A stretch of DNA of 64,000 nucleotides, taken from sequence record NC_031047.1. One strand, 5' to 3'. Source of the DNA: Escherichia phage HY03. The position numbers were made by a program, and so were the translations under genes. The notes beneath the pieces are model-generated. The model saw only the letters and a list, made by a program, of their open reading frames with translations, made no database searches and was not told where the DNA came from. Below, piece by piece: positions 1,758-58,285 of the stretch (position 1 is its first letter; every line of letters begins with the position of its first letter).

Positions 1758-2339
1758 ATGGCGAGTTTAATTTTTACTTATGCAGCAATGAATGCTGGAA
1801 AATCTGCTTCTCTTTTGACTGCTGCGCATAATTATAAAGAACGTGGAATGAGTGTATTAGTTCTTAAGCCTGCTATTGATACTCGTGATTCTGTCTGTGA
1901 AGTCGTTTCTCGCATTGGAATTAAACAGGAAGCTAATATTATTACGGATGATATGGATATTTTTGAGTTCTATAAATGGGCTGAAGCACAAAAAGATATT
2001 CATTGCGTATTTGTAGATGAAGCTCAGTTTTTAAAAACTGAACAAGTGCATCAATTGAGTCGAATTGTTGATACATATAATGTTCCTGTTATGGCTTATG
2101 GATTAAGGACTGATTTCGCTGGAAAATTATTTGAAGGTTCTAAAGAACTTTTGGCGATTGCAGATAAACTTATTGAACTAAAAGCAGTTTGTCATTGTGG
2201 TAAAAAAGCTATTATGACAGCTCGATTAATGGAAGATGGAACACCAGTTAAAGAAGGTAATCAAATCTGTATTGGTGATGAAATTTATGTTTCTTTGTGC
2301 AGAAAACATTGGAATGAATTAACTAAAAAGCTCGGTTAG
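1758..2339 (+). CDS. tk: thymidine kinase
   Basis: 193 aa; P-loop NAGKSASLL and C-terminal Cys cluster; matches recalled T4 Tk. Confidence 0.95.
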   Translation: MASLIFTYAAMNAGKSASLLTAAHNYKERGMSVLVLKPAIDTRDSVCEVVSRIGIKQEANIITDDMDIFEFYKWAEAQKDIHCVFVDEAQFLKTEQVHQLSRIVDTYNVPVMAYGLRTDFAGKLFEGSKELLAIADKLIELKAVCHCGKKAIMTARLMEDGTPVKEGNQICIGDEIYVSLCRKHWNELTKKLG

Positions 2340-2348
2340 TGCAAAAGT

Positions 2349-2356
2349 TATAAATA
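2349..2356 (+). promoter_or_regulatory. T4 late promoter box TATAAATA
   Basis: exact TATAAATA 25 nt upstream of the ATG at 2382. Confidence 0.55.
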
Positions 2357-2381
2357 GGTTTATCTAACTAAAGGGGTATAT

Positions 2382-2594
2382 ATGTTACAATTAACTGAAA
2401 AGCAACTTCGCAATCTTACTGTTCTTCAATTAGATGAAATTCGTAGGGAAGTTGGAAATATCATTTCAGCTTTGCGTCGAGAAGTATCACTCAACCAATC
2501 TCCGGCAGACTATACTAGATTGCGAAATTTTGAAAAATACCTTGATAAAGTTAAGGCCGTGCATCGGCATAAAGTAAATACAGGGCAAAAATGA
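2382..2594 (+). CDS. hypothetical protein (rI.1 position)
   Basis: 70-aa ORF between tk and rI. Confidence 0.6.
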
Positions 2595-2606
2595 TAGGAG
2601 GCCTTT

Positions 2607-2900
2607 ATGGCCTTAAAAGCAACGGCACTATTTGCCATGCTAGGATTGTCATTTGTTTTATCTCCATCGATTGAAGCGAATGTCGATCCTCATTTTGATA
2701 AATTTATGGAATCTGGTATTAGACATGTTTATATGCTTTTTGAAAATAAAAGCGTAGAATCATCTGAACAGTTCTATAGTTTTATGCGAACGACTTATAA
2801 AAATGACCCGTGCTCTTCCGATTTTGAATGTATAGAGCGAGGCGCGGAGATGGCACAATCATACGCTAGAATTATGAACATTAAATTGGAGACTGAATGA
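2607..2900 (+). CDS. rI: lysis inhibition regulator rI
   Basis: 97 aa with N-terminal signal-anchor MALKATALFAMLGLSFVL; matches recalled T4 RI. Confidence 0.9.
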   Translation: MALKATALFAMLGLSFVLSPSIEANVDPHFDKFMESGIRHVYMLFENKSVESSEQFYSFMRTTYKNDPCSSDFECIERGAEMAQSYARIMNIKLETE

Positions 2901-3283
2901 AATTCAGCGACTTTTCACAAAGTGGAAAACCTTCAAAGGCAGATGAATACTTAGGTTTATTAATGGCTGCGCAAGCTTATTTTCATTCTGCGCATTTTGA
3001 AACTAAAAGTTATGCTAGACACAAAGCATACGATTTTATTTTCTCTGAGTTGCCAGATTTGATTGATAAATTTGGTGAGCAATATTTGGGGTATTCTGGT
3101 AGAAAATACACGCCTTCAATTCCAGATGCTAGTAAACTTCCTACCGACACAATTAAAATGATTGATCGCATACTAGACCAATCTAACAGCATTTATAAAG
3201 AAATGCCTCCAGCTATCCAAAGCACGATAGATGATATTACTGGAATGTTTTACCAGAGTAAGTATCTTCTTTCCCTCGAATAA
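2897..3283 (+). CDS. hypothetical protein (rI.-1 position)
   Basis: 128-aa ORF overlapping rI stop. Confidence 0.6.
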
Positions 3284-3287
3284 CATT

Positions 3288-3310
3288 AGTCTCCTTCGGG
3301 AGACTTTTTT
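3288..3310 (+). terminator. rho-independent terminator
   Basis: AGTCTCC-TTCG-GGAGACT hairpin followed by T6. Confidence 0.8.
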
Positions 3311-3320
3311 CATTTTACCG

Positions 3321-3350
3321 GTTTACTTTCCGTTTGAGCTGTGGTACTAT
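3321..3350 (+). promoter_or_regulatory. T4 early promoter
   Basis: GTTTAC, 18-nt spacer, TACTAT; conserved TGGTACTATACAACTATC segment. Confidence 0.75.
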
Positions 3351-3378
3351 ACAACTATCGGATAAAGAGGAGAACATC

Positions 3379-3567
3379 ATGAAAATTGAAGCACTTAATC
3401 AAGAAGGAAATATCTACGTCATCATTAATGGTGATTTTTTCGTCGACATGGATGAAGTTACCAGTGAAGAACTTGTAGAACTTCTTAAGAAACGTTATAA
3501 TATGTGTGATGAAGTTGCAACTCACATGGCGTGTGCAATATTCTCTCTTTCATATGTGGTGGAATAA
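3379..3567 (+). CDS. hypothetical protein
   Basis: 62 aa; AGAGGAG RBS before ATG. Confidence 0.5.
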
Positions 3568-5563: not shown

Positions 5564-6532
5564 ATGAAAACTGTAACTATCAATAAGGGTATCTACTTTG
5601 GTAAAGAAATCTCTGGAACTTTTGAGCTCTTAGGTGAATGGTTCCCAGATAATGCTCCGGTAGATGCACAAGGAGATGGTAAAGTTTTTGTTGAAATTGA
5701 CGGTAAACGTCGCGGTGTTTGGGTTTACAAATCAGACATTTCATATGATGGTGTAAAAGTTGAAGAAGTTAAAGAATCATATGAAGATATGAAAACCCGC
5801 ATTAATAAAAGATTTAATGTTATGGGAATGATGACGAATGGTATTATTAACGGAAACATTCGTTCATTAATTATCTCTGGTGCGGCGGGTATTGGTAAAA
5901 CGTATTCTTTAGATAAAGCTTTAAATAAAGCAAATGATAATGGATACATTGAATATAAAAGCATTAACGGTAAAATCTCTGGTATCGGTCTTTATGAACA
6001 GCTCTGGAATAATCGTGAAGAGAATTCTGTCCTTTTGATTGATGATGTGGATGTTTTCTCTGATATGGACATTCTTAATCTTCTGAAAGCTGCTCTGGAC
6101 ACTGGAGAGACCCGTAAAGTCTGCTGGAGCACCGCATCTTCTTACTTAGAAGAAAAAGGCATTGAGCGTGAGTTTGAATTTAAAGGAACGATTGTTTTTA
6201 TCACAAACGTTGACATTGACCGCGAATTAGACCGTGGTACTAAACTTGCTCCACATTTACAAGCATTAGTGTCCCGCTCAGTTTATTTAGATTTGGGTGT
6301 TCACACTAATGAAGAAATTATGGTCAGGGTTGAAGATGTTATTCTTTCAACCGACATGATGCAAAAGCGTGGTCTTTCTGATGAAGAAACTTATAAAGCA
6401 TTATCATGGATGAAAGTCAATGTTAACCGTTTACGTAATGTTTCACTGCGTACTGCACTTTATCTTGCTGACTTTATTATGACCGACAAAAACGGTTGGG
6501 AAGAAATTGCTGAGGTTACTCTTCTGAAATAA
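5564..6532 (+). CDS. AAA-type ATPase
   Basis: in-frame ATG of track ORF 5552..6532; Walker A GAAGIGKT and Walker B VLLIDDVD. Confidence 0.7.
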   Translation: MKTVTINKGIYFGKEISGTFELLGEWFPDNAPVDAQGDGKVFVEIDGKRRGVWVYKSDISYDGVKVEEVKESYEDMKTRINKRFNVMGMMTNGIINGNIRSLIISGAAGIGKTYSLDKALNKANDNGYIEYKSINGKISGIGLYEQLWNNREENSVLLIDDVDVFSDMDILNLLKAALDTGETRKVCWSTASSYLEEKGIEREFEFKGTIVFITNVDIDRELDRGTKLAPHLQALVSRSVYLDLGVHTNEEIMVRVEDVILSTDMMQKRGLSDEETYKALSWMKVNVNRLRNVSLRTALYLADFIMTDKNGWEEIAEVTLLK

Positions 6533-6634
6533 ATTCATAAGAGGACTTCTAAGACAAAAAGGCAGTTCAGAAATAGATTATATGGACTGCCATTAAAAAG
6601 ATGACTAGAATTAAACTGGTAAATGGAGGTAATG

Positions 6635-6937
6635 ATGTTATACTCAAAGGCTCGTGAAATTTACGAAACTAAGATTAAAGAAGCTGTATTTCAGTTCGCA
6701 ACAACAATGCGATGGACAAATGATTGGGAATATTCAAAAAATCATAAGAAGCCCATGGTGACAAGAAAGGCTCATATGTTAGTGTTAATAGACCGTGAGC
6801 AGATTAAAGCCCGAGAAGCCCTCCAGAATCATAAAAAGGCTGCCTTTGAATGGTTTATGGATAACACTGCTCCTGAGACTAAGAAAGTAGTGAGCGCATG
6901 GTTCAGTGGAAAAAATTGTGAAAGAAGTTTCTTTTAG
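6635..6937 (+). CDS. hypothetical protein
   Basis: track ORF 6623..6937; GGAGG RBS then tandem ATGs; start uncertain. Confidence 0.5.
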   Translation: MLYSKAREIYETKIKEAVFQFATTMRWTNDWEYSKNHKKPMVTRKAHMLVLIDREQIKAREALQNHKKAAFEWFMDNTAPETKKVVSAWFSGKNCERSFF

Positions 6938-6939
6938 TT

Positions 6940-6969
6940 GTTTACAAGACTGTTCCTCTGTGGTACTAT
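6940..6969 (+). promoter_or_regulatory. T4 early promoter
   Basis: GTTTAC, 18 nt, TACTAT; near-identical copy at 62807. Confidence 0.75.
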
Positions 6970-6997
6970 ACAACTATCAACTACGGAGGAACACAAA

Positions 6998-7525
6998 ATG
7001 AACGCTAAAGATATTTTCAACCTGGTAAATTACAACGATGGTAAATTTAAATCTGAAGCACAAAGCAAGTTCTTTAATGACATCTCAATCGGAGGTGAAA
7101 TCACGGTTGATGGAGGACAAATTTACAAATCCCGTTGGAATTGGATCGTTATTATCGATGAGATTGGTATTGTAGAAATTTACAAGAATACGAATAAAAA
7201 TCGTACATTACACTGGTCTCGTGATACTAACGAACAGTACAAAAAGGATAAAGCATCTAAATTATCTCGTGTAACTCAAGAAGATATTGAGTTCATCAAG
7301 AAAGATATTTTAATGTATGATAACTTAATTGCTGAAGAGCAAGCTGTTATTGATAAATTTGACGAGATTAAAGCTTCTCGTGAAATTCCTGATTTTATGA
7401 AAGAATCAGTAAATGAACGATACACTCTCATTTCAGAGCGTATTGAAACTTACAAAAAGCAAAGAGCTGAACGCCAAAATACTCTTCGGAAGTTTGAAGA
7501 ACGGTTAAAGACGGTACTCGCATAA
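6998..7525 (+). CDS. hypothetical protein
   Basis: 175 aa; GGAGGA RBS. Confidence 0.6.
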   Translation: MNAKDIFNLVNYNDGKFKSEAQSKFFNDISIGGEITVDGGQIYKSRWNWIVIIDEIGIVEIYKNTNKNRTLHWSRDTNEQYKKDKASKLSRVTQEDIEFIKKDILMYDNLIAEEQAVIDKFDEIKASREIPDFMKESVNERYTLISERIETYKKQRAERQNTLRKFEERLKTVLA

Positions 7526-7526
7526 C

Positions 7527-7551
7527 TGCTTTATACCAAGGATGGTATAAT
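7527..7551 (+). promoter_or_regulatory. T4 middle promoter (MotA box)
   Basis: TGCTTTA, 12-nt spacer, TATAAT. Confidence 0.6.
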
Positions 7552-7580
7552 GGTTCTAAGCCCTTTTAATTGAGATTATT

Positions 7581-7988
7581 ATGAAACAGTTGATAATTAA
7601 AAGATTGAATTTATTGATATGTTGTTTATGTATAGCAATTGCATATGGTTATTACGCAATTAATGATTATATGCATTATAAAGATTATGATGTTACTGTA
7701 GTTAATACTATTACAGGAACACAAGGAAAGGGGTCTAGTTTATCGTTTATTGCTATATATGAACTCAAAGACGGTTATAGATTTAGTGAATATATTTCCC
7801 CAGAGATGTATTCTTCAATAGAAAAAGGCGATAATATTACTGTAAGTTTACGTCCTTTTGACGTAAAACAGACATTGTTTGATAATATTGTTTGGTTCTT
7901 TGGAATGGTATTAGTTCAATCTGTGTGTGGTGCTTATATAGTCTGTTCCATCATATTCTGTGTATTTAGTAAAATTGAAATTGAGTGA
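7581..7988 (+). CDS. hypothetical membrane protein
   Basis: 135 aa; hydrophobic N- and C-terminal segments. Confidence 0.6.
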   Translation: MKQLIIKRLNLLICCLCIAIAYGYYAINDYMHYKDYDVTVVNTITGTQGKGSSLSFIAIYELKDGYRFSEYISPEMYSSIEKGDNITVSLRPFDVKQTLFDNIVWFFGMVLVQSVCGAYIVCSIIFCVFSKIEIE

Positions 7989-7995
7989 GGAAAAT

Positions 7996-8883
7996 ATGTC
8001 AGTAGCAATTAATAATGTCAATGCAGTAATTAAATCTTTAGTTAATAAAAAATCAAATGAATGGACTGTACTTCAACGCGACGAGTCAGATAAATTTTTT
8101 CATAAATTTAACCCAGTACTAAATTTAAATGTTATTGATAAAGATGTTCATGCTGAAATTTTAGATAAGTTTAAAGTTGATATTGGATTTGGATTAGAAA
8201 AACATTTACAACGAACAAACGGGTCTGGAATGCTTTTATCTAATCGCATCATGAAAGCCCTTAATAAAATTGGAGCATTGTCTCGTATTAATGCGAGTGA
8301 AATCCTTCGCAATTATAATAAAGGATACGACCTTTATGGTCGACTAATGCCGAAATTATCATTTGACCAAATGATCGCAGATTTGTGGGAAAATCAACGA
8401 CGATTATTAGCATTAGGCGCTCGATTGGCTAAAGGTCTAGATAAACAAATGATTTTTAAGACCAATAATACAGAAGACCTTAAATGCTTTAAATTTAGCA
8501 CTCGTGGAGATGATTATTACGTCAGAGCTCACTCTACAGATTATGTTAATATGGGGCATCATCTCTGTTTAGCTTTTGAAATTTTAAAAGAAGCTGGAAC
8601 ATTAGAATATGTGTCTGGTGCTAAATGTCCGATTGGTTCAAATTGCATTTTAATTTATCGCCCGGATGAATCCAGTTCATCTAAATTACCTACAAAACCT
8701 GTACCAGTTCGCAGTAATGAAAAACATTCTGAACAAATTGCTTATTTTAATAAGCAGATTGAAGAGCTAAATATTTCTATTCAGCAATATGATGATGAAA
8801 TTTTCAGACTATCTGGATTGAGTAGTAAAGCTAAATCTGAACGTGAAAAATTAATTAAAATTGTTGATTTACTTAAATCTTAA
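7996..8883 (+). CDS. hypothetical protein
   Basis: 296 aa from in-frame ATG after TGAGGAAAAT RBS. Confidence 0.6.
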   Translation: MSVAINNVNAVIKSLVNKKSNEWTVLQRDESDKFFHKFNPVLNLNVIDKDVHAEILDKFKVDIGFGLEKHLQRTNGSGMLLSNRIMKALNKIGALSRINASEILRNYNKGYDLYGRLMPKLSFDQMIADLWENQRRLLALGARLAKGLDKQMIFKTNNTEDLKCFKFSTRGDDYYVRAHSTDYVNMGHHLCLAFEILKEAGTLEYVSGAKCPIGSNCILIYRPDESSSSKLPTKPVPVRSNEKHSEQIAYFNKQIEELNISIQQYDDEIFRLSGLSSKAKSEREKLIKIVDLLKS

Positions 8884-8891
8884 GGAACACC

Positions 8892-9188
8892 ATGAAAACT
8901 CGTTCTCAAATTGAAGATATGGTTCGTAATGCCAGTTATACTCGTGATGTTATGACATTTTTGTGTGAAAATAATTTAGACCCTGATAAAGTTAATCGTG
9001 TTATTTATCACTTTAAGTATACGAATAGCAGTGAATGGTTACGTCATTTTAGTAAAGCGGGGTATATTACACAAATGACTGCTCGTGAACAGCTCACCGA
9101 TTTCTGTAAAACTATTGATTATAAAAATCCTCTATTTGTTCGAGGCGTTGGTCAAAGTAAGACTGATCTATCAACTGGATTTTTTTAA
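8892..9188 (+). CDS. hypothetical protein
   Basis: 98 aa; ends at TAA directly after a T7 run. Confidence 0.6.
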   Translation: MKTRSQIEDMVRNASYTRDVMTFLCENNLDPDKVNRVIYHFKYTNSSEWLRHFSKAGYITQMTAREQLTDFCKTIDYKNPLFVRGVGQSKTDLSTGFF

Positions 9189-9915
9189 TCCAAATCATTA
9201 TCGTCTTGAATGGAGATTTATTGCTTTATTCCGTAAACAATTAAAGCAAATTTTGTCTACTGCTAGTCGATTAAAAGGCTCTGATATTAACTTAAAGAAT
9301 CTGAAATTTGATGGTTATACTCTTCAGATGGAAGTAAGACCGTTAAAAGAAAATAATAGAACTGCACGAATTAGCTTTAAACCTAATACAAAAAATTCTC
9401 TTTCAATTTGCGAATGCCTTAAATCGCAGTTGACAGAAGCATTTAAGTATATGGATGTTGTTGCTGCTGTTCAATCTAAGATTTTACCTCGTTTTGAGCG
9501 AAATTGGGAACATACAACAACATATGAACTTGATATGATCGTTTCATTTAAATATGAATTTTTGAGAAAGGATGAAATTGTTCAAGAGAAAAAGCAGGAA
9601 GTGCAAGATACCTTAAATTCATCTAATTACTCATCAAACGATCCTAAATTTTGGATGTATAGCTCAAGCAATATAGATGCATGTAAACTTAATAAAGTGA
9701 GTTTTCTTCCTACTGAAAATTCAAATTTTAAACCTGTTGAAAAATGGCACGCGGATGCGATTGAGAAGTCTATCAAGGCAGTAGATGATGAACTCGTTAA
9801 AGCAACTAATGAAGTGTTAGAAGCTGAAAAGATGCTAGAAAAAGCTCAAGAAAAAGTCAAAAATCTCACGAAGCAACGTTCTAAACTGAACAATGCACTA
9901 AATGCACTAAACTAG
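9085..9915 (+). CDS. hypothetical protein, start unresolved (possible frameshift fusion with 8892..9188)
   Basis: track ORF in +1 frame overlaps upstream gene by about 100 nt; no good RBS at in-frame ATG 9328 or TTG 9253. Confidence 0.35.
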   Translation: MNSSPISVKLLIIKILYLFEALVKVRLIYQLDFFNPNHYRLEWRFIALFRKQLKQILSTASRLKGSDINLKNLKFDGYTLQMEVRPLKENNRTARISFKPNTKNSLSICECLKSQLTEAFKYMDVVAAVQSKILPRFERNWEHTTTYELDMIVSFKYEFLRKDEIVQEKKQEVQDTLNSSNYSSNDPKFWMYSSSNIDACKLNKVSFLPTENSNFKPVEKWHADAIEKSIKAVDDELVKATNEVLEAEKMLEKAQEKVKNLTKQRSKLNNALNALN

Positions 9916-12706: not shown

Positions 12707-13180
12707 ATGTTATTGACTGGCAAATTATACAAAGAAGAAAAACAAAAATTTTATAATGCACAAAACGGTAAATGCTTAATTTGCCAACGAGAACTAAATC
12801 CTGATGTTCAAGCTAATCACCTCGACCATGACCATGAATTAAATGGACCAAAAGCAGGAAAGGTGCGTGGATTGCTTTGTAATCTCTGCAATGCCGCAGA
12901 AGGTCAAATGAAGCACAAATTTAATCGTTCTGGCTTAAAGGGACAAGGTGTTGATTATCTTGAATGGTTAGAAAATTTACTTACTTATTTAAAATCCGAT
13001 TACACCCAAAATAATATTCACCCTAACTTCGTTGGAGATAAATCAAAGGAATTTTCTCGTTTAGGAAAAGAGGAAATGATGGCTGAGATGCTTCAAAGAG
13101 GATTTGAATATAATGAATCTGACACCAAAACACAATTAATAGCTTCATTTAAGAAGCAGCTTAGAAAGAGTTTAAAATGA
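12707..13180 (+). CDS. 49: endonuclease VII (Holliday junction resolvase)
   Basis: 157 aa; zinc-binding CLICQ...CNLCN; matches recalled T4 gp49. Confidence 0.9.
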   Translation: MLLTGKLYKEEKQKFYNAQNGKCLICQRELNPDVQANHLDHDHELNGPKAGKVRGLLCNLCNAAEGQMKHKFNRSGLKGQGVDYLEWLENLLTYLKSDYTQNNIHPNFVGDKSKEFSRLGKEEMMAEMLQRGFEYNESDTKTQLIASFKKQLRKSLK

Positions 13181-13714
13181 CAATTGAAAAAGAAATTGAA
13201 GGATTGATTCATAAAACTAATAAAGACCTTTTAAACGAGAATGCTAATAAAGATTCTCGTGTTTTTCCAACTCAACGGGACCTTATGGCCGGTATTGTGT
13301 CTAAACACATTGCCAAAAATATGGTCCCGTCTTTTATTATGAAAGCGCATGAAAGCGGAATTATTCACGTGCATGATATTGATTATTCTCCTGCTCTTCC
13401 GTTTACCAATTGCTGTTTAGTCGATTTAAAGGGGATGCTTGAGAATGGATTTAAATTAGGCAATGCTCAAATTGAAACGCCTAAATCTATTGGCGTTGCT
13501 ACTGCAATTATGGCACAAATTACAGCACAAGTTGCTTCACACCAGTATGGCGGAACTACATTTGCGAATGTCGATAAAGTTCTTTCTCCTTATGTTAAAC
13601 GTACATACGCTAAACATGTTGAAGATGCAGAAAAATGGCAAATCGCTGATGCGTTGAATTATGCTCAATCTAAAACAGAAAAAGATGTATACGATGCATT
13701 CCAGGCGTATGAGT
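13177..13714 (+). CDS. nrdD: anaerobic ribonucleotide reductase NrdD, exon 1
   Basis: N-terminal 179 codons plus one nt; exon ends in U that can wobble-pair with intron guide GCUCAU. Confidence 0.75.
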
Positions 13715-13925
13715 TAATTTAATTCAGGCTCATGTAAAACCGGTCTAAACGGGGAACCTCTCTAGTAGACAATCCCGTGCTAAATGTTCTTTTGAACTAA
13801 ATGCCTAACGACTAACCGTGATGAATGTAGCGGTGTAGAATAGAAGCTAATGCTATTCGAAACGGCCGGCATCGAAAGATGAAGATATAGTCTAATCTGC
13901 ATGGCGACATGCAGCAGTCATCTTG

Positions 13926-13933
13926 TATAAATA
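13926..13933 (+). promoter_or_regulatory. T4 late promoter box TATAAATA
   Basis: exact TATAAATA 29 nt upstream of the intron ORF ATG. Confidence 0.6.
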
Positions 13934-13962
13934 AGATTATCTTATGAATACGAGGTGAAACA

Positions 13963-14733
13963 ATGAAATGGATAAAAAGACGTTGTACTAAAATAAAAGA
14001 TAAAGACGCATTTACATACTTAGTTAAGTTTTCTAATGGCGACATTTATATCGGTTATAAAAAATTTAGAACAATTAAAAACAAGCCCACAAACTGGAAA
14101 ACTTACACAACGTCATCTAAGTATATAAATGAACGCTTAAAAACTGATACACCTACTAAATGGATAATTTTAAAAACATTTGATAGTTATAAAGATGCAT
14201 TAAAACATGAAGAAGAGGTCATACGTAAATATTTTTATAGCAAAAAATGTTTAAATAAATCCATAGGCGGTAAAAAGTTTTATAAGCATCCGGATACTGA
14301 AGAACATATTCAAAAATTAAGAGATGCTCATAAGGGTAAAGTGTTATCCGAATCTCATAAAAACAATATAAAATCTTCTGTGGCTGAATATTATGCTAAA
14401 AACAGAAGATCTAAGGAACATGTGCAAAATAATATCAATAGTCGAAAAAGTAAAAAACAAGTATCGATAAAGCTTAAAAATAAAACTTTTAGAAGTTTTA
14501 AAAAAGCAGCGGAATATTTAAATTGCACTGAAAGTGAAGTCGAAACTCATCCTCTTGTTTTGAGTATTAAGACTACTATTCATAAAGTTCCTGAATATGT
14601 GGTTGTTGACGGTATTAAGTATACGTCTTATATAGAAGCAGCTAAAGCGCTAAATTTTCATCCTAGCACTATAAAAGAACGTTGCATATCTATGGACTAT
14701 CCAAATTTTGTTGTTTCATATAAACGGGCATGA
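13963..14733 (+). CDS. I-TevII: intron-encoded GIY-YIG homing endonuclease
   Basis: 256 aa; GDIYIGYKK motif; inside the nrdD intron. Confidence 0.8.
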   Translation: MKWIKRRCTKIKDKDAFTYLVKFSNGDIYIGYKKFRTIKNKPTNWKTYTTSSKYINERLKTDTPTKWIILKTFDSYKDALKHEEEVIRKYFYSKKCLNKSIGGKKFYKHPDTEEHIQKLRDAHKGKVLSESHKNNIKSSVAEYYAKNRRSKEHVQNNINSRKSKKQVSIKLKNKTFRSFKKAAEYLNCTESEVETHPLVLSIKTTIHKVPEYVVVDGIKYTSYIEAAKALNFHPSTIKERCISMDYPNFVVSYKRA

Positions 14734-14747
14734 ATTTGCGACTCATG

Positions 14748-16039
14748 CTGAATATAATGATGAAGTAAATACACTTTTCAGCTCTAATGGACAGACTCCT
14801 TTTGTAACAATTACATTTGGTACGGGAACTGACTGGACTGAACGAATGATTCAGAAAGCAATTCTGAAAAATCGTATTAAAGGTCTTGGTCGTGATGGGA
14901 TAACTCCTATTTTCCCTAAGCTTGTTATGTTTGTTGAAGAAGGTGTTAATCTTTACAAAGACGATCCGAACTATGATATTAAGCAGCTTGCTCTAGAGTG
15001 CGCAAGCAAAAGAATGTATCCTGATATTATTTCAGCTAAGAACAATAAAGCTATCACTGGTTCATCTATTCCTGTTTCTCCGATGGGATGCCGTAGTTTC
15101 TTGAGTGTATGGAAAGATTCGACTGGTAATGAAATTCTTGATGGACGTAATAATCTTGGTGTTGTAACACTGAATCTTCCTCGTATCGCATTAGATTCTT
15201 ATATTGGAACACAGTTCAATGAACAGAAATTTGTTGAATTGTTCAATGAACGAATGGATTTGTGTTTTGAAGCTTTGATGTGTAGAATTAGTTCCTTAAA
15301 AGGAGTTAAAGCTACTGTTGCTCCTATTCTTTACCAAGAAGGTGCATTCGGGGTTCGTCTTAAACCTGATGACGACATAATTGAGTTATTTAAAAACGGT
15401 AGAAGTTCAGTGTCCCTAGGATACATTGGTATTCATGAATTGAATATTCTTGTCGGTCGTGATATTGGACAGGAAATTTTAACTAAAATGAATGCCCATC
15501 TTAAACAGTGGACTGAAAGAACTGGATTTGCTTTTAGTTTATATTCGACTCCTGCTGAAAACCTTTGTTATCGCTTCTGTAAACTTGATACAGAAAAATA
15601 TGGAAGCGTAAAAGATGTTACCGATAAAGGTTGGTACACTAATAGTTTCCATGTTTCAGTAGAAGAAAATATTACTCCGTTTGAAAAGATTTCTCGTGAA
15701 GCGCCATATCATTTCATTGCGACAGGTGGTCACATTTCTTATGTTGAACTTCCTGATATGAAAAATAACTTAAAAGGTCTTGAGGCCGTATGGGATTATG
15801 CTGCACAGCATTTAGATTATTTTGGTGTTAATATGCCAGTAGATAAATGTTTTACATGTGGAAGTACCCATGAAATGACTCCTACTGAAAACGGATTTGT
15901 TTGTTCTATTTGTGGAGAAACTGATCCTAAAAAGATGAACACCATAAGAAGAACATGCGGATATCTTGGAACTCCTAGCGTTGTCCCATGGAATTTAGGT
16001 AAAATGAAAGAAATGGTAAAACGAGTAAAACATGCATAG
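14748..16039 (+). CDS. nrdD: anaerobic ribonucleotide reductase NrdD, exon 2
   Basis: begins CUGAA (pairs with intron UUCAG); C-terminal glycyl-radical motif RRTCGYLG and Cys cluster. Confidence 0.75.
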
Positions 16040-16862
16040 GTATTATATAATTTATAAAATAACAAATATAATTAATTCAAAGGAATATATCGGTGCGCAT
16101 AGCACCGATAACATAAATGACGGTTATATGGGGTCAGGAACATTGATTCGTGCCGCTTTATTAAAATATGGTAGAAAAAATTTTAATAAAGAAATTTTAC
16201 ATGTTTTTGATAATGAAAAACAAATGTATGATAAAGAAGCTGAACTCGTAACCGAAGAGTATTGTCTAAAAGAAAATACATATAATATTAAACCTGGTGG
16301 CAAAGGTGGAACTGCCTATGAACAGACGCTTGAACATCGCCGCAAAAATAGCTTAGCAAATAAAGGTAAAAAGAGAACAGCAGAAACTAAAATAGCTATT
16401 TCAAATGCTTTAAAGAAATATAAACGTACGTCAGAACATCAAGCAAACTTAAATAAAGCTGTAAGCATAGCCATGAAGCGAAAAGATGTTAGAAGTAAAT
16501 TAACTGGAGCGCGTTCTGAGAAAGATAAATTATCTATATCAAATGGTGTTAAAAAATATTACAATTCTTTGAGCGAAGAAGAACGTGAACTTCATCGCAA
16601 GCGAATTATTGAAGGTAAAAAGAATTCTCCCATGACATTGGAATCCAGACAAAAGCTTTCAAAAGCTTTAAAAGGACTTCAAGTTGGTTCAAAAAATCCA
16701 ATGTATGGAAAAATTTCTCCAACTAGCAAAACCGTTTCAGTTGACGGTATTAAATATGATTCAATTAAAAAGTGCTCAAATGCCATAAAAGTTTCTAGAC
16801 ATCTTATACTAAAACGCTGTAATTCTACTGATGAAGCTTGGAAAAATTGGATATTATTATGA
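16032..16862 (+). CDS. free-standing GIY-YIG homing endonuclease (segH-like, at the T4 mobC position)
   Basis: 276 aa; YYIIYKITNIINSKEYIGAHS motif, NUMOD-like repeats, C-terminal HTH-like segment. Confidence 0.75.
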   Translation: MHRYYIIYKITNIINSKEYIGAHSTDNINDGYMGSGTLIRAALLKYGRKNFNKEILHVFDNEKQMYDKEAELVTEEYCLKENTYNIKPGGKGGTAYEQTLEHRRKNSLANKGKKRTAETKIAISNALKKYKRTSEHQANLNKAVSIAMKRKDVRSKLTGARSEKDKLSISNGVKKYYNSLSEEERELHRKRIIEGKKNSPMTLESRQKLSKALKGLQVGSKNPMYGKISPTSKTVSVDGIKYDSIKKCSNAIKVSRHLILKRCNSTDEAWKNWILL

Positions 16863-17329
16863 ATTATGATAGATTTTATCCTTGCGATTTTGTTAATGGT
16901 CCTGGGTGCAGGACCGTTCTTTTTGTTACTGGATGTTTGCATAAATGCGAAGGGTGTTATAATAAATCAACATGGAATGCTAGAAATGGTATTCCATTCA
17001 CTGGTGAAACACTAGAGCAATTAATTGAATGTTTGAATAATGATTATATAGAAGGATTGACTATAACTGGAGGAGACCCTCTCTATCCTGATAACCGAGA
17101 TGTTATTCATTGCATTGTTCAAACAGTAAAAAATCTTTATCCAAATAAAAGCATTTGGTTGTGGACAGGATATAAGTTTGAGGATATTAAACAACTAGAA
17201 ATGCTTAAATATGTTGATGTTATTATTGATGGGAAGTATGAGAAAAATCTTCCGACTAAAAAGCTGTGGCGAGGATCAGATAATCAGCGACTTTGGTCAA
17301 ATACCGATGGGGTGTGGAAACATGATTAA
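16859..17329 (+). CDS. nrdG: anaerobic ribonucleotide reductase activating protein
   Basis: 156 aa; radical-SAM-like Cys cluster CRTVLFVTGCLHKCEGC. Confidence 0.85.
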   Translation: MNYDRFYPCDFVNGPGCRTVLFVTGCLHKCEGCYNKSTWNARNGIPFTGETLEQLIECLNNDYIEGLTITGGDPLYPDNRDVIHCIVQTVKNLYPNKSIWLWTGYKFEDIKQLEMLKYVDVIIDGKYEKNLPTKKLWRGSDNQRLWSNTDGVWKHD

Positions 17330-17444
17330 ATTGAATTATATTATGGACACTATAAATGATATGATTTTTCATTTTGGTCCAGAGTTTTATTCACAATATA
17401 GTTTAGTGCTTATCAATGCTTGGTTAATCAATTAAGGGTAAAAT

Positions 17445-17657
17445 ATGTATAAATTTCGTAAAGGTTTAGCTGATTTTCTTACAACTGTAACATTCTTTTT
17501 GTTTATGGCAGTTGGAGCTATTTTTCTTATTCCTTTTATTGCTATATTTTTCGTGATTAGTTTGATTTCTCCAGAAAAAGGACTGTCTTCTAGTGAGTTC
17601 AATGAGCGTCTGGATAAAATTACTAACAAACTGAATGCTGCTCTTAGTAAGGAATAG
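17445..17657 (+). CDS. hypothetical membrane protein
   Basis: 70 aa with one hydrophobic helix. Confidence 0.5.
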   Translation: MYKFRKGLADFLTTVTFFLFMAVGAIFLIPFIAIFFVISLISPEKGLSSSEFNERLDKITNKLNAALSKE

Positions 17658-33224: not shown

Positions 33225-33965
33225 ATGATTAGTGACTCTATGACAGTTGAAGAAATCCGTCTTCATTTGGGGCTTGCATTAAAGGAAAAAGATTTCGTAG
33301 TTGATAAAACTGGCGTTAAAACTATTGAAATTATTGGCGCATCATTTGTAGCAGATGAACCGTTTATTTTTGGCGCTCTTAATGATGAATACATTCAGCG
33401 TGAACTTGAATGGTATAAGTCTCAAAGTCTGTTTGTTAAAGATATTCCAGGTGAAACACCGAAGATTTGGCAGCAGGTAGCATCTTCTAAAGGTGAAATT
33501 AACTCGAATTATGGTTGGGCTATCTGGTCAGAAGATAACTATGCTCAATATGATATGTGTTTAGCTGAACTTGGTCAAAATCCTGATTCTCGACGTGGTA
33601 TCATGATTTATACTCGTCCATCTATGCAGTTTGACTACAATAAAGATGGCATGTCAGATTTCATGTGTACGAATACAGTACAGTACCTGATTCGTGATAA
33701 GAAAGTCAATGCGGTTGTTAGCATGAGAAGCAATGATTGCTGGGCAGGCTATCGTAATGATTATGCTTGGCAAAAATACGTACTAGATAAATTAGTATCT
33801 GATTTGAATGCAGGCGACCCATCGCGGCAATATAAAGCAGGTTCTATTATATGGAACGTTGGAAGTCTTCATGTGTACGAAAATCAGTTTTATTTAGTTG
33901 ACCATTGGTGGAACACCGGTGAGACTCATATTGCTAAAAAGGATTATACTGGAAAATGGAAGTAA
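33225..33965 (+). CDS. 42: dCMP hydroxymethylase
   Basis: 246 aa; thymidylate-synthase-like fold; matches recalled T4 gp42. Confidence 0.9.
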   Translation: MISDSMTVEEIRLHLGLALKEKDFVVDKTGVKTIEIIGASFVADEPFIFGALNDEYIQRELEWYKSQSLFVKDIPGETPKIWQQVASSKGEINSNYGWAIWSEDNYAQYDMCLAELGQNPDSRRGIMIYTRPSMQFDYNKDGMSDFMCTNTVQYLIRDKKVNAVVSMRSNDCWAGYRNDYAWQKYVLDKLVSDLNAGDPSRQYKAGSIIWNVGSLHVYENQFYLVDHWWNTGETHIAKKDYTGKWK

Positions 33966-34597
33966 ATGTGCCGCATGTTTATAAGTATAAACATCCTAAA
34001 ACTAAAAAGTGGTATATAGGAAGTCATGATGGTCACAACCCGAATTATGATGGTTCGGGTGTAGTTTGGCAACATGCTAAAAAGAAATATGGAATAAAAT
34101 CCTTTAATAAAGAAATATTATATGAAGGACCAATGTTTAGACAGGTTGAAGAAATTATTTTAACTTGTTTAGATGCTGCTAATTGTCCGGATTCATATAA
34201 TTTAAAGAATGAAGCATGGGGAGGAAGTTTTCCAGGCAAATTAAATGGAATGTACGGTAAAAAACTATCTCCAGAAGAAAGATATAAGTGCGGAAATGCC
34301 TTTCGTGGAATCAAGCGTCCTGATCATTCTAAAAGAATGAAAGGCGAAGGTAATCCAATGTATGGTAAAAATGAGCAGGCATATGGAATTATAAATCGAG
34401 CCAAGGAAAATTCTGGTAAAACTTATGAAGAAATTTTTGGCGTAGAAAAAGCTAAAATAATTAAAGAAACGATGTCTAAAAATCGTAAAGGAAAACCTCA
34501 TAATTTGATAGAAAAAATATGTCCGCATTGCGGACTAAAAGGACGTGGGCCAAATATGACAAGATACCATTTTGACAAATGTAAGGCACTTAAATGA
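33956..34597 (+). CDS. free-standing GIY-YIG homing endonuclease
   Basis: 213 aa; HVYKYKHPKTKKWYIGSH motif; NUMOD-like repeats; C-terminal CPHCG...C zinc motif; overlaps gene 42 stop. Confidence 0.75.
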   Translation: MEVNVPHVYKYKHPKTKKWYIGSHDGHNPNYDGSGVVWQHAKKKYGIKSFNKEILYEGPMFRQVEEIILTCLDAANCPDSYNLKNEAWGGSFPGKLNGMYGKKLSPEERYKCGNAFRGIKRPDHSKRMKGEGNPMYGKNEQAYGIINRAKENSGKTYEEIFGVEKAKIIKETMSKNRKGKPHNLIEKICPHCGLKGRGPNMTRYHFDKCKALK

Positions 34598-35513: not shown

Positions 35514-36443
35514 ATGTCTATTGCAGATTTAAAATCCCGTTTGATTAAAGCTTCCACTTCTAAAATGACTGCAGAGCTTACTAAAAGCAAGTTCTTTAAT
35601 GAAAAGGATGTGGTTCGTACTAAAATTCCAATGCTGAATATTGCAATTAGCGGTGCGTTGGACGGTGGCATGCAGTCTGGTTTAACTATTTTCGCAGGGC
35701 CTTCTAAACATTTTAAATCTAATATGTCACTGACAATGGTAGCAGCTTATTTGAATAAGTATCCTGATGCTATCTGTTTGTTCTATGACTCAGAGTTTGG
35801 TATCACTCCGGCTTATCTTAAGTCTATGGGTGTTGACCCGGAACGAGTAATTCATACGCCAATCCAATCAGTTGAACAGCTGAAAATTGATATGGTGAAT
35901 CAGCTTGAAACTATTGAGCGTGGTGAAAAGGTTATTGTATTCATCGACTCAATTGGTAATATGGCTTCTAAGAAAGAAACGGAAGATGCCTTGAATGAAA
36001 AATCTGTGGCAGATATGACTCGTGCTAAATCACTGAAGTCATTATTCCGTATTGTTACTCCTTATTTTAGTATTAAAAACATTCCATGTGTTGCGGTTAA
36101 CCATACAATTGAAACAATTGAACTGTTTAGTAAAACCGTGATGACAGGTGGTTGTGTTATTGCTGGTACTAAAATCCAGATGTCCGATGGTTCTACTAAA
36201 GCAGTTGAAGATATTCGTCCAGGTGAACGTGTTAAAACCATGGTCGGTGATAATGAAGTAACTTATGTTTGGGACCCAGAAACTCTGGCTGAAGGTACTC
36301 CTGAATGTTTCGAAATTGAATTCGAAGACGGTTATAAAGTAACTACTTCAGATACCCACAAGTTCCTGGTAATGGTTAAAGACATTCCAACTTGGGTTGA
36401 AGCTAAAGATTTAGTAGCTGGAATGGATTGTGTTGTAAGGTAA
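35514..36443 (+). CDS. uvsX: UvsX recombinase N-terminal extein (213 aa) fused to N-terminal intein fragment (96 aa)
   Basis: matches T4 UvsX to ...FSKTVMTGG, then CVIAGTKIQMSDGS (intein block A) and TSDTHKFLV (block B); ends at double stop TAA TAA. Confidence 0.85.
   Translation: MSIADLKSRLIKASTSKMTAELTKSKFFNEKDVVRTKIPMLNIAISGALDGGMQSGLTIFAGPSKHFKSNMSLTMVAAYLNKYPDAICLFYDSEFGITPAYLKSMGVDPERVIHTPIQSVEQLKIDMVNQLETIERGEKVIVFIDSIGNMASKKETEDALNEKSVADMTRAKSLKSLFRIVTPYFSIKNIPCVAVNHTIETIELFSKTVMTGGCVIAGTKIQMSDGSTKAVEDIRPGERVKTMVGDNEVTYVWDPETLAEGTPECFEIEFEDGYKVTTSDTHKFLVMVKDIPTWVEAKDLVAGMDCVVR
36153..36440 (+). other. intein N-terminal fragment (Hint blocks A and B)
   Basis: starts at Cys codon directly after extein TGG; 96 codons. 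Confidence 0.8.
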
Positions 36444-36446
36444 TAA

Positions 36447-36488
36447 ATATGGGTACCGGACTAATGTATATTTTTGAGGTACCCATAT
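36447..36488 (+). promoter_or_regulatory. stem-loop occluding the endonuclease start codon
   Basis: perfect 11-bp inverted repeat ATATGGGTACC / GGTACCCATAT, 20-nt loop; right arm overlaps the GAGG RBS and the AT of the ATG at 36487. Confidence 0.65.
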
Positions 36489-37209
36489 GAATTTTGTCTA
36501 TAAAATTGTGTTCAACGATAGAATTAAAAACGGCACTCCGCCGTATTACTACATAGGAAGCAAGACAAATGCTTCTTATGTAGACGGTAAGATTATTGAC
36601 GCCCGTGGTCGCGAGTACTATGGCTCATCGAGATATCCCGGATATCATGATTTTATCAATAATGTTACTGTTGAAATACTGGAGCAATATGATGATATTA
36701 AACATGCTAAACTGCTAGAGCGCGAAAATTTCTATCAGAAACAAGTAAACGTTAAAACAAATCCAGATTATTTTAATTTGGATTATGCTTGTGGACATAA
36801 TTCATATGCTAATGCTGATTTTGCATCATACAAGCATCATATAACAGGTAAATGTATTCGTCTTGAAAGAAACCATCCGCTTGTTAAATCTGGTGTGTAT
36901 GTTGGCGTCACAAAAGGCGTGAAATCTTCTGATGAACACCGTAAGCACATATCAGAAGGTATTACAGGAGAAAACAATGGGTTCTATGGTAAGAAACACA
37001 CCAAAGAAACAATTAATGAAATATCAGAAAAAGCAAAGAAAAGATTAAAGCATTCTCATCCTAGACAAAAAGGCGTTATCATAAACGGTATTGAATACCG
37101 GGGCGTCAGACCTGCTGCAAGAGCGCTGGGAATTAATCCTAACACAATTATCAACAAAATTAAAGCTAACACAAAAGGATGGGCTTATGCAGTAGATGCA
37201 CGTGGTTAA
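36487..37209 (+). CDS. free-standing GIY-YIG homing endonuclease between the split intein halves
   Basis: 240 aa; VYKIVFNDRIKNGTPPYYYIGSK motif; ENNGFYGKKHTKETINEISEKAKK and C-terminal segment resemble I-TevI linker/DNA-binding region. Confidence 0.8.
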   Translation: MNFVYKIVFNDRIKNGTPPYYYIGSKTNASYVDGKIIDARGREYYGSSRYPGYHDFINNVTVEILEQYDDIKHAKLLERENFYQKQVNVKTNPDYFNLDYACGHNSYANADFASYKHHITGKCIRLERNHPLVKSGVYVGVTKGVKSSDEHRKHISEGITGENNGFYGKKHTKETINEISEKAKKRLKHSHPRQKGVIINGIEYRGVRPAARALGINPNTIINKIKANTKGWAYAVDARG

Positions 37210-37351
37210 GGCATTCCAATGCGAGTTCTTTACGGGTTCGCACTACATTCGAAGATATGGTAAAAGAATTTGGAATGAACGCGACAATCAAGATTATGCT
37301 TTCATGAAATATGTATATTGAAACTAGCTACTACGAAACACAAGGTAAAGT

Positions 37352-37456
37352 ATGAAAATTAAATCTGTTAAATCTGTTGGTAAAAAAGAAGTCTATGATT
37401 TGTCTGTTGCTGACGTAGAGCATTATGTTTTAGAAAATGGTATCGTTACACACAAT
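37352..37456 (+). other. intein C-terminal fragment (Hint blocks F and G)
   Basis: ends ...THN followed by Thr as +1 extein residue. Confidence 0.8.
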
Positions 37457-37999
37457 ACAGGCGTAATGTATTCGGCTGATACTGTATTCATTATCGGTAA
37501 GCGTCAGATTAAAGATGGTTCTGATCTTCAGGGGTATCAATTTGTTCTAAATGTAGAAAAATCTCGTACCGTTAAAGAAAAAAGTAAATTCTTTATTGAT
37601 GTTAAATTTGACGGTGGTATCGATCCTTATTCTGGATTGTTAGATATGGCTCTAGAATTAGGATTTGTAGTAAAACCAAAAAATGGCTGGTATGCTCGTG
37701 AATTTCTTGATGAAGAAACCGGCGAGATGATTCGCGAAGAAAAATCTTGGCGTGCAAAAGATACCAACTGCACTACATTCTGGGGTCCTTTATTTAAGCA
37801 TCAACCATTCCGAGATGCTATTAAACGTGCTTATCAGTTAGGTGCTATTGATAGTAATGAAATTGTTGAAGCTGAAGTTGATGAATTGATTAACTCAAAG
37901 GTTGAAAAATTTAAATCTCCAGAAAGTAAAAGTAAATCAGCAGCTGATTTAGAAACTGACCTCGAGCAGTTAAGTGATATGGAAGAATTTAATGAATAA
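37352..37999 (+). CDS. uvsX: C-terminal intein fragment (35 aa) fused to UvsX C-terminal extein (180 aa)
   Basis: own ATG and AAGGT RBS; VYDLSVADVEHYVLENGIVTHN (blocks F/G) then TGVMYSADTVFIIGKRQ... matching T4 UvsX C-terminus. Confidence 0.85.
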   Translation: MKIKSVKSVGKKEVYDLSVADVEHYVLENGIVTHNTGVMYSADTVFIIGKRQIKDGSDLQGYQFVLNVEKSRTVKEKSKFFIDVKFDGGIDPYSGLLDMALELGFVVKPKNGWYAREFLDEETGEMIREEKSWRAKDTNCTTFWGPLFKHQPFRDAIKRAYQLGAIDSNEIVEAEVDELINSKVEKFKSPESKSKSAADLETDLEQLSDMEEFNE

Positions 38000-55157: not shown

Positions 55158-56708
55158 ATGATTAAGAATGAAATTAAAATTCTGAGCGATATTGAACATA
55201 TCAAAAAGCGTAGCGGCATGTACATTGGCTCTTCTGCTAATGAAATGCATGAGCGCTTTCTGTTTGGTAAATGGGAAAGTGTTCAGTATGTACCTGGTCT
55301 TGTTAAGCTTATTGATGAAATTATCGATAACTCAGTAGATGAAGGTATTCGTACTAAGTTTAAATTCGCAAATAAAATTAATGTTACTATTAAAAACAAT
55401 CAAGTAACAGTTGAAGATAACGGTCGCGGTATTCCACAGGCGATGGTTAAAACACCTACCGGTGAAGAAATTCCTGGTCCTGTTGCTGCGTGGACTATTC
55501 CAAAAGCAGGTGGTAACTTCGGTGATGATAAAGAACGCGTCACTGGCGGTATGAATGGTGTTGGTTCTAGTTTGACAAACATTTTTTCTGTGATGTTTGT
55601 CGGTGAAACTGGTGATGGTCAAAATAATATTGTAGTTCGTTGTTCAAATGGCATGGAAAATAAATCATGGGAAGATATTCCCGGAAAATGGAAAGGAACT
55701 CGTGTTACTTTCATTCCTGATTTTATGTCATTTGAAACTAATGAGTTGTCCCAAGTTTATCTTGACATTACATTAGATCGTCTCCAGACACTTGCTGTTG
55801 TTTATCCTGATATTCAATTTACCTTTAATGGTAAAAAGGTTCAGGGCAATTTTAAGAAATATGCACGCCAATATGATGAACATGCTATCGTTCAAGAACA
55901 AGAAAATTGTTCTATTGCGGTCGGTCGTTCACCGGATGGTTTTCGTCAATTAACATACGTCAATAACATTCACACTAAGAATGGTGGTCATCACATTGAC
56001 TGTGTTATGGATGATATTTGTGAAGACCTTATTCCACAAATCAAACGTAAGTTCAAAATTGATGTAACTAAAGCACGTGTCAAAGAATGTTTGACTATCG
56101 TTATGTTTGTTCGTGATATGAAAAACATGCGATTTGATTCTCAAACTAAAGAACGACTTACTTCTCCTTTTGGTGAAATTCGTAGTCATATTCAACTTGA
56201 TGCTAAAAAGATTTCACGTGCTATTTTAAATAATGAAGCAATTTTAATGCCGATTATTGAAGCTGCTTTGGCTCGTAAATTGGCGGCAGAAAAAGCAGCA
56301 GAAACTAAAGCAGCTAAAAAGGCTTCTAAAGCTAAGGTTCATAAACATATTAAAGCGAATCTTTGCGGTAAAGATGCTGACACTACTCTTTTCTTGACTG
56401 AGGGTGATTCGGCTATCGGATATCTTATTGATGTTCGTGATAAAGAACTTCACGGCGGTTATCCATTGCGTGGTAAAGTTCTTAATAGCTGGGGTATGTC
56501 ATATGCTGATATGCTTAAAAACAAAGAACTATTTGATATTTGCGCAATCACTGGATTAGTTCTTGGTGAAAAAGCGTTTGAAGAAAAAGAAGACGGTGAG
56601 TGGTTTACTCTCGAACTAAATGGTGATACAATTATTGTAAATGAAAATGATGAAGTACAGATTAATGGTAAATGGATAACAGTAGGTGAATTACGAAAAA
56701 ATCTATAA
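55158..56708 (+). CDS. 39: DNA topoisomerase II large subunit gp39 (ATPase plus Toprim N-part)
   Basis: 516 aa; GHKL ATPase motifs; matches T4 gp39. Confidence 0.9.
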   Translation: MIKNEIKILSDIEHIKKRSGMYIGSSANEMHERFLFGKWESVQYVPGLVKLIDEIIDNSVDEGIRTKFKFANKINVTIKNNQVTVEDNGRGIPQAMVKTPTGEEIPGPVAAWTIPKAGGNFGDDKERVTGGMNGVGSSLTNIFSVMFVGETGDGQNNIVVRCSNGMENKSWEDIPGKWKGTRVTFIPDFMSFETNELSQVYLDITLDRLQTLAVVYPDIQFTFNGKKVQGNFKKYARQYDEHAIVQEQENCSIAVGRSPDGFRQLTYVNNIHTKNGGHHIDCVMDDICEDLIPQIKRKFKIDVTKARVKECLTIVMFVRDMKNMRFDSQTKERLTSPFGEIRSHIQLDAKKISRAILNNEAILMPIIEAALARKLAAEKAAETKAAKKASKAKVHKHIKANLCGKDADTTLFLTEGDSAIGYLIDVRDKELHGGYPLRGKVLNSWGMSYADMLKNKELFDICAITGLVLGEKAFEEKEDGEWFTLELNGDTIIVNENDEVQINGKWITVGELRKNL

Positions 56709-58017: not shown

Positions 58018-58046
58018 TTTACTTTACCACAAGGATGTGGTATAAT
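58017..58046 (+). promoter_or_regulatory. T4 early promoter
   Basis: GTTTAC overlapping gene 60 stop, 18 nt, TATAAT. Confidence 0.7.
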
Positions 58047-58275: not shown

Positions 58276-58285
58276 TGAGGAAATT

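Follow-up and report, generated by a model that had tools for sequence, protein, structure and literature searches.

The closest described counterpart of the gene considered here is segH, which a 2005 paper in Nucleic Acids Res 33:6203 by Sandegren, Nord & Sjoberg reportedly described in the T4 relatives RB3 and LZ2, and also in U5. In that work segH is said to have replaced mobC in 3 of the 18 phages screened, and its product reportedly cuts DNA near its own locus, in genomes with segH as well as in those without it; homing of segH in mixed infections is likewise said to have been observed. The GenBank entries for RB3 (AY262138.2) and LZ2 (AY262139.2) annotate the order nrdD, segH and nrdG, with the product named "SegH, homing endonuclease" (type proteins ABI48949.1 and ABI48951.1, respectively). 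In T4, the same intergenic position holds mobC (NC_000866, 42906-43538), which is also a free-standing endonuclease gene that overlaps its neighbors, although its product belongs to a different nuclease family, HNH. The T4 Seg proteins are free-standing GIY-YIG endonucleases of the same family and build as SegH, but they are encoded at other loci, presumably have other targets, and are only 22-33% identical to the protein studied here. The model for SegH is the mechanism known from I-TevI and from the Seg enzymes of T4 (PMC2790892, PMC2988022).

Identity of the gene between nrdD and nrdG of HY03

The window, that is, the whole stretch of DNA analyzed, comprises 64,000 nucleotides of Escherichia phage HY03 (NC_031047.1), and the coordinates given below for nrdD, segH, nrdG and their parts all refer to its plus strand. 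An ORF at 16032-16862, taken from the ORF listing, starts with ATG, ends with TGA and encodes 276 amino acids. The initial annotation had placed a GIY-YIG endonuclease gene at these positions, in tight overlap with nrdD upstream and nrdG downstream, and both the coordinates and the overlaps, which measure 8 nt and 4 nt, proved to be exact. The last 8 nt of nrdD exon 2, which include its stop codon (16037-16039), are shared with segH, whose start codon occupies 16032-16034, and the overlap ATGCATAG (16032-16039) is read as ...AAA CAT GCA TAG in nrdD and as ATG CAT AGG in segH. At the other end, segH and nrdG share the 4-nt overlap ATGA (16859-16862), which reproduces the nrdD/nrdG ATGA overlap of phages that carry no insert. 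The flanking nrdD spans 13177-16039, including an intron-like insert with an I-TevII-like ORF (13963-14733), and nrdG spans 16859-17329. A TTG at 16838 was considered as an upstream start of nrdG and was rejected because the ATG at 16859 is the annotated start in RB3, LZ2 and PP01. With a G+C content of about 32%, the calculated chance of a stop-free run of 276 codons is about 3e-10 per start, and the ORF is therefore not a product of chance. Two ORFs on the minus strand, at 16124-16303 and 16679-16942, were without support and were dismissed.

The encoded protein is identical to RB3 SegH at 270 of 276 positions (98%), and the gene is 97.6-97.7% identical to the two type records at the DNA level. 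SegH of RB3 and LZ2 has the same length of 276 amino acids, and its gene occupies the same slot, overlaps its neighbors likewise by 8 nt and 4 nt, and is linked with the same alternative nrdD tail, which is described below. We are confident that the HY03 ORF is segH, a free-standing GIY-YIG (I-TevI-like) homing endonuclease gene that had already been described at exactly the nrdD/nrdG position. The presence of mobC at this position in T4, which the initial annotation had mentioned along with the replacement of mobC by a GIY-YIG gene in T4 relatives, is confirmed by the T4 coordinates, and in the RB3 and LZ2 records segH occupies it. T4 MobC gave no blastp match to HY03 SegH at E <= 10.

When 50,697 phage records were searched with megablast, segH was matched in 71 of them, 69 of which contain all 831 nt, and the identity was nearly always 95-99%. 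The mobC gene was found in 32 phage records, always with at least 99% identity, and the insert-less nrdD-ATGA-nrdG junction in about 608. These counts indicate that the segH state is represented in roughly a tenth of the sequenced T-even-type (T4-like) genomes. The nrdD/nrdG slot is a clean natural example of a locus with three states, in which it is empty or holds either the GIY-YIG gene segH or the HNH gene mobC.

Another name for the same gene is found in the databases. It is called "segD" in KM606994-KM606999 and NC_025419, which represent RB3, RB5, RB6, RB7, RB9, RB10 and ACG-C40, with the ACG-C40 entry also noting "SegD", and in the homology search against SegH and other Seg proteins that had been proposed as a check, T4 SegD was indeed the closest of the T4 paralogs tested (32% identity over 264 amino acids, E 9e-34). 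It is nevertheless very unlikely that the HY03 gene is an orthologue of T4 segD rather than a separate segH because the identity amounts to only 32%, because T4 segD has its place on the opposite strand, flanked by genes 23 and 24, and because the describing authors' own GenBank records say segH. The "segD" label most likely arose through annotation transfer from a best hit. The gene should be named segH, in place of "segD" and of the designations "hypothetical protein" or "NUMOD3 motif protein" used in records.

Domain organization and predicted fold of SegH

HY03 SegH is built of three parts: a GIY-YIG nuclease domain comes first, NUMOD3 repeats occupy a helical linker, and a helix-turn-helix forms the C-terminal part. 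The catalytic domain (aa 1-93, 16032-16310), delimited by the structural model, its fold matches and a sequence alignment, has the order beta-beta-alpha-beta-alpha and contains YYIIYKITN...KEYIGAHS, whose core "IIY...YIG" is a degenerate GIY-YIG motif with IIY and not GIY as its first part. The GIY-YIG reading, which a lack of profile matches had been said to refute, is supported, the profile evidence for it being indirect: homologs, fold and invariant residues agree with it, but the Pfam profiles GIY-YIG (PF01541, E 0.42) and SegE_GIY-YIG (PF19835, E 0.0024) both remained below their cutoffs. Among the 381 SegH relatives retrieved by a search of 5.8 billion proteins, PF01541 or PF19835 is common in those that are 55-65% identical over the N-terminal ~95 residues. 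In an alignment of 40 sequences, Y8, Y19, G21, H23, E69 and N85, together with a GG motif, are invariant. The catalytic R27 of I-TevI has no clearly invariant counterpart; SegH has R40, but the column is variable, and it is H23 that is invariant instead. A profile of the PHROG collection, PHROG 314 "homing endonuclease," also matched HY03 SegH, with an E-value of 5.6e-59.

The AlphaFold model of SegH has a mean pLDDT of 83.8, with values of 90-97 over aa 1-90, where strands are predicted at 4-12, 18-25 and 51-59 and helices at 37-46 and 62-72. The four best PDB matches obtained with Foldseek all belong to I-TevI, namely 1mk0 and chains A and B of 1ln0 for the catalytic domain and 1i3j for the DNA-binding domain; their probabilities are 0.99-1.00, but their E-values are weak, being 4.8e-3 at best. 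The TM scores on the target are 0.59-0.63 for the matches of the catalytic domain to 1mk0 and 1ln0. The assignment of the N-terminal domain to the GIY-YIG fold is thus supported by the homologs that carry the domain, by the invariance of Y8, Y19, E69 and N85, and by the I-TevI matches of the predicted model. A phmmer search for relatives in the PDB yielded matches at chance level only, and a scan of IMG/VR found no close relative of SegH, the GIY-YIG proteins detected there being 54% identical or less.

The helical linker (aa ~98-228, 16323-16715), recognized from Pfam and the model, is predicted to form seven helices, at 100-110, 117-129, 134-148, 151-158, 163-179, 182-198 and 203-213. Its end coincides with a Pfam NUMOD3 match (aa 200-228, 16629-16715; E 2e-7), which scored 31.3 bits against a cutoff of 20.4, and several weaker helices of the form S/T-x-E-x-x-x-K-[IL]-S lie upstream of this match. 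The remainder of the protein is an I-TevI-type helix-turn-helix DNA-binding module (aa 226-273, 16707-16850), which was located by a sub-threshold Pfam match and by its fold. The I-TevI_DNA-bd profile matched this region with an E-value of 8.5e-4, which is below the Pfam cutoff, and AlphaFold predicts a small beta/helix-turn-helix unit with pLDDT values of 88-92, exceeding 90 for aa 240-270. This unit is the part that matches 1i3j, the structure of the I-TevI DNA-binding domain bound to DNA. The NUMOD-like repeats and the C-terminal helix-turn-helix-like segment that had been noticed in the initial annotation were both recovered, the former above the Pfam cutoff and the latter through 1i3j and the sub-threshold profile.

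The architecture is reminiscent of that of I-TevI, which likewise possesses an N-terminal GIY-YIG domain of ~95 amino acids, a long flexible linker, and a C-terminal module with a helix-turn-helix, although the identity between the two proteins is about 25% in the aligned domains. The linker of SegH consists of NUMOD3-like helices, unlike that of I-TevI, and a zinc finger was not detected in SegH. Moreover, I-TevI is encoded in an intron, the td intron of T4, whereas SegH is free-standing. The possibility that the HY03 gene is also intron-borne, or belongs to an intein, was considered because the best curated family for the protein is TIGR01453, "group I intron endonuclease" (aa 7-274, E 2.1e-12, 47.5 bits, which is below the cutoff of 56.05), its structural relatives are domains of I-TevI, and the neighboring nrdD is interrupted by an intron-like insert, in which an I-TevII-like ORF is found. 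Such an origin is, however, extremely improbable because segH overlaps the stop codon of nrdD and the start codon of nrdG, and thus lies between two complete genes, and because in phages without an insert an ATGA links nrdD and nrdG directly. No Rfam family reached the gathering threshold in 13500-17500, the nrdD intron included.

Borders of the mobile unit and expression of segH

The last part of nrdD (15958-16039), which contains the start codon of segH, is an alternative 3' end linked with segH, as was found by comparing 11 phages and T4. The linked tail encodes TPSVVPWNLGKMKEMVKRVKHA in place of NPNERGFNLGKNKEIMHRVKHQ, and ~35 of its 82 nucleotide positions differ between the segH-linked and insert-less types of nrdD. 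The switch from one allele to the other begins at, or right after, the codons of the glycyl-radical motif RRTCGYLG. All eight segH phages compared, HY03, RB3, LZ2, FL44, PP01, F2, ACG-C40 and moha, have the alternative tail, which is absent from the insert-less phages SP1, JB75 and pSe_SNUABM_01 and also from T4, whose nrdD tail is of the insert-less type despite the mobC insert. In the phage records, the 82-nt tail allele was found in 79, as compared with the 71 that have segH. Because the start codon of segH sits within the linked tail, the mobile unit, as judged from these comparisons, is a segment of ~0.9 kb (roughly 15958-16862) and not the ORF alone. segH therefore brings along a replacement for the 3' end of its neighbor nrdD.

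The opposite border is placed differently among the phages. RB3, FL44, PP01, F2 and ACG-C40 share a variant of the first ~33 nt of nrdG (...DRIYPCC...), whereas the nrdG start of HY03, like that of LZ2 and moha, is of the insert-less type (...DRFYPCD...). The 5' end of nrdG was thus ruled out as a part of the cassette in HY03, where the exchanged tract stops at the segH/nrdG boundary. In phages with and without segH alike, nt 12-90 of nrdG, that is, most of its first ~90 nt, form the most polymorphic stretch of the locus.

The segH gene appears to be a promoter-less cassette that is coupled to nrdD, and the ATGA overlap would then couple nrdG to segH. The promoter-less appearance arises from the lack of a late promoter nearby and of a convincing middle promoter: the T4 late promoter TATAAATA was not found between 13926 and 18200, and AATGCTTTA at 16404, which resembles a MotA box, was rejected as a middle promoter because a properly spaced -10 element is missing. 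A scan for sigma-70-like sites returned fewer sites than were found in shuffled sequences. Since only a weak GAG, 7-9 nt away, precedes the ATG of segH, translation likely starts by coupling or re-initiation. The gene would then be transcribed together with nrdD and nrdG, and its coupling to nrdD would give a low level of translation. Several free-standing endonuclease genes of T4 are similarly promoter-less and coupled by overlaps (PMC2988022).

Allelic variation, spread and a possible homing mechanism

HY03 SegH differs from RB3 SegH by six amino acids, A117E, N125R, S133P, T158A, A160E and T202S (in the direction HY03 to RB3), all of which are in the NUMOD linker, and aa 1-116 and 203-276 are 100% identical between the two. 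At the DNA level, ~19 differences, all in nt 270-615 of the gene, which correspond to the linker, are common to none of the seven alleles fetched, and both gene ends are identical to those of RB3. A117 and N125 also occur in SegH of Salmonella phage KM16, which is 90% identical to the HY03 protein. With its differences confined to the linker, its RB3-like ends and the two residues shared with KM16, the HY03 allele has the appearance of a mosaic between two types of segH. A protein identical to that of HY03 was absent from a public collection of 15 billion protein sequences.

segH is under purifying selection. The dN/dS values against the HY03 allele are 0.11-0.21 in seven comparisons, ~0.13 being the value quoted together with the 19 linker-confined substitutions, and all eight alleles compared are intact and full length. 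These observations bear on the idea that segH of HY03 is a decaying or domesticated remnant, intact but inactive, which is kept for its coupling to nrdG or for the nrdD tail that it provides. A precedent exists in T4, where I-TevIII is described as a defunct endonuclease in the title of PMC2790892, and the ATGA coupling of nrdG to segH, the six linker substitutions, which are private to the HY03 allele or rare, and the absence of the exact protein from public data would be compatible with such a fate. We consider it improbable, however, given that the catalytic and C-terminal parts are completely identical to those of RB3 SegH, that the dN/dS values are low, the alleles full length and the motif residues conserved, and that the presence of nearly identical copies in two genera suggests a recent spread. 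The gene is instead regarded as segH with the function of a homing endonuclease, while the nuclease activity of the HY03 allele is extrapolated from RB3, LZ2 and U5.

The spread concerns the phage genera Tequatrovirus and Mosigvirus, the latter being represented by phage moha, whose segH is 97% identical to that of HY03. Over about 14800-17400, the identity of moha to HY03 is mostly 93-100% (87-100% per 100-nt block), compared with 72-85% across most of the 16 kb around this tract. Such a pattern would be expected if nrdD exon 2, segH and nrdG had recently been exchanged across the genus border, and strong conservation of nrdD could also have contributed to the tract of high identity. A more distant, full-length relative (P0004, 47% identical) is encoded 53 nt after nrdD on an unrelated 175-kb phage contig, where nrdG is 2 kb away, and the association of the SegH family is thus with the 3' end of nrdD.

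A homing mechanism can be proposed from the published, near-identical alleles of RB3, LZ2 and U5 and from the general mechanism of Seg enzymes and I-TevI. SegH would bind DNA through its C-terminal and linker modules, and the GIY-YIG domain would cut nearby. In a mixed infection, SegH would introduce a double-strand break into the co-infecting genome, near the segH locus, and recombination-dependent repair would then copy segH and the flanking nrdD and nrdG sequences from the segH-carrying genome. The outcome would be homing accompanied by local marker exclusion. One candidate for the cut site is the conserved stretch that encodes RRTCGYLG, at the left edge of the cassette, which would fit self-cleavage because it is found whether or not a genome carries segH. 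The other candidate is the polymorphic region of the first ~90 nt of nrdG.

Taken together, SegH-type endonucleases of distant phage lineages might all specialize in the 3' end of nrdD, recognizing the DNA that encodes RRTCGYLG and bringing their own replacement for the NrdD tail, in which 13 of 22 codons are changed. This joint reading is offered tentatively, and we think it rather doubtful. If it were true, the replacement tail would keep the host gene functional while destroying the native context of the target, the confinement of substitutions to the linker in the HY03 allele could mean that the distance between binding and cleavage has been tuned, and the mobile unit would have to be seen as a gene tail plus an endonuclease, rather than as an endonuclease gene alone. 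Apart from such considerations, segH of HY03 is an already known and ordinary gene. Its locus, where segH crosses genus borders along with the nrdD tail, is useful for studying the mosaicism that homing endonucleases shape in T4-like phages, but it raises no new question and matters little beyond annotation.

The statement in the initial annotation that the window holds five homing endonuclease genes is valid at the level of families. Besides segH, PHROG homing-endonuclease families were matched by the I-TevII-like ORF in the nrdD insert (13963-14733), by GIY-YIG-like ORFs at 33956-34597 and 36487-37209, and by a mobA-like ORF at 56782-57504. The ORF in the nrdD insert is only 56% identical to T4 I-TevII. 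PHROG 314 is common to segH, the I-TevII-like ORF and the two other GIY-YIG ORFs. More noteworthy than segH is the uvsX region elsewhere in the window (35514-37999), where a split intein breaks the gene in two and a GIY-YIG gene sits between the halves.

The segH tract in Mosigvirus phages and nrdG of T4

Phage moha (MN850590.1), a member of Mosigvirus, carries a close counterpart of the region around segH, the free-standing GIY-YIG homing endonuclease gene located between nrdD and nrdG. When positions 6477-9357 of moha were compared with 14760-17645 of the window, identity across a tract of ~2.5 kb around segH was for the most part 93-100%, with 87-100% in individual 100-nt blocks, and identity over most of the genome surrounding this tract was 72-85%. 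Judged from these alignments, the segH tract looks like the product of an exchange between genera, i.e., Mosigvirus and the Tequatrovirus-like window, with the endonuclease gene at its center. Another Mosigvirus phage, FL18 (PP400780.1), has a different arrangement at 1909-3400, where nrdD is gone and a 222-aa GIY-YIG-like ORF (MNVVYKLSF…PPYYYIGSKTN…), which resembles the ORF located in uvsX of the window, is fused in frame to TPSVVPWNLGKMKEMVKRVKHA, the alternative NrdD tail linked to segH. The fused ORF is followed by segH and then by an orphan nrdG.

The nrdG gene of T4, which has the HNH gene mobC in place of segH, is of the common type in its first 104 nt, as is the 3′ end of nrdD, and from nt ~105 onward it diverges sharply from that of every other phage compared. 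The protein sequence in this part reads …NGQLFTMNTVKELASHLSKS… in T4 versus …NGIPFTGETLEQLIECLNND… in the other phages compared. The sequence pattern marks nt ~105 of T4 nrdG as a mosaic boundary just downstream of mobC.

A hairpin in the 5′ end of nrdG

A 10-bp hairpin, AAUGGUCCUG-GGUG-CAGGACCGUU, followed by CTTTTTGTT, is found at 16895-16918, inside the 5′ end of nrdG (nt 37-60). With a free energy of −17.4 kcal/mol and a z of −2.6, it is at a level reached by 21 of 500 shuffles, and 97.8% of the cells in an alignment of 12 phages are paired. One compensatory change from C-G to U-A, made at the price of V19T in NrdG, and a change from G.U to G-C were observed. On this weak evidence, the hairpin could be a terminator/attenuator, a translational element, or part of an endonuclease target.

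Fractured uvsX and other endonuclease ORFs

The uvsX gene is split into two pieces within 35514-37999. In the N-terminal piece (35514-36443), the RecA part stops at …TVMTGG and is followed by a 99-aa intein N-half (CVIAGTKIQ…) with Hint/Vint matches. In the C-terminal piece (37352-37999), an intein C-half (MKIKS…GIVTHN) comes first, and TGVMYSAD… and the UvsX C-domain come after it. A free-standing GIY-YIG/NUMOD3 ORF (36487-37209) sits between the two pieces. Dassa et al. 2009 (PMC2677866) described this "fractured gene" layout; UvsX is not among the hosts on their list. The layout is also present in seven phage records (≥80% coverage), among them ELT1, where the annotation is only "recombination protein x2".

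The intron-like insert of nrdD contains an ORF (13963-14733) that is an I-TevII-like variant, with only 56% identity (144/257) to T4 I-TevII. In SP1, JB75, FL44, and pSe_SNUABM_01, an ORF that is likewise 771 nt long is annotated at this position. The late-promoter sequence TATAAATA lies at 13926, and no group I intron was detected at the Rfam gathering threshold within 13500-17500.

Gene 42 overlaps at its end with a 213-aa GIY-YIG-like ORF (33956-34597; PHROG 314, E 2e-31), which precedes a 280-aa TAGT-family glycosyltransferase, annotated in related records as beta-glucosyl-HMC-alpha-glucosyltransferase. In the region 55158-58280, the 516-aa gene 39 is followed by a mobA-like HNH ORF (56782-57504; PHROG 655, E 2e-38). 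Between the latter and rIIA, no ORF of at least 90 aa was found. This would fit a split 39/60 topoisomerase gene of the T4 type, including the gene-60 bypass arrangement.

Naming of segH in GenBank records

In GenBank (KM606994-KM606999, NC_025419, and JN986846), segH is wrongly named "segD" in the genomes of RB3, RB5, RB6, RB7, RB9, RB10, and ACG-C40, and other records call it "hypothetical protein" or "NUMOD3 motif protein". The segH product shares only 32% identity with T4 SegD, and T4 segD is at another locus.
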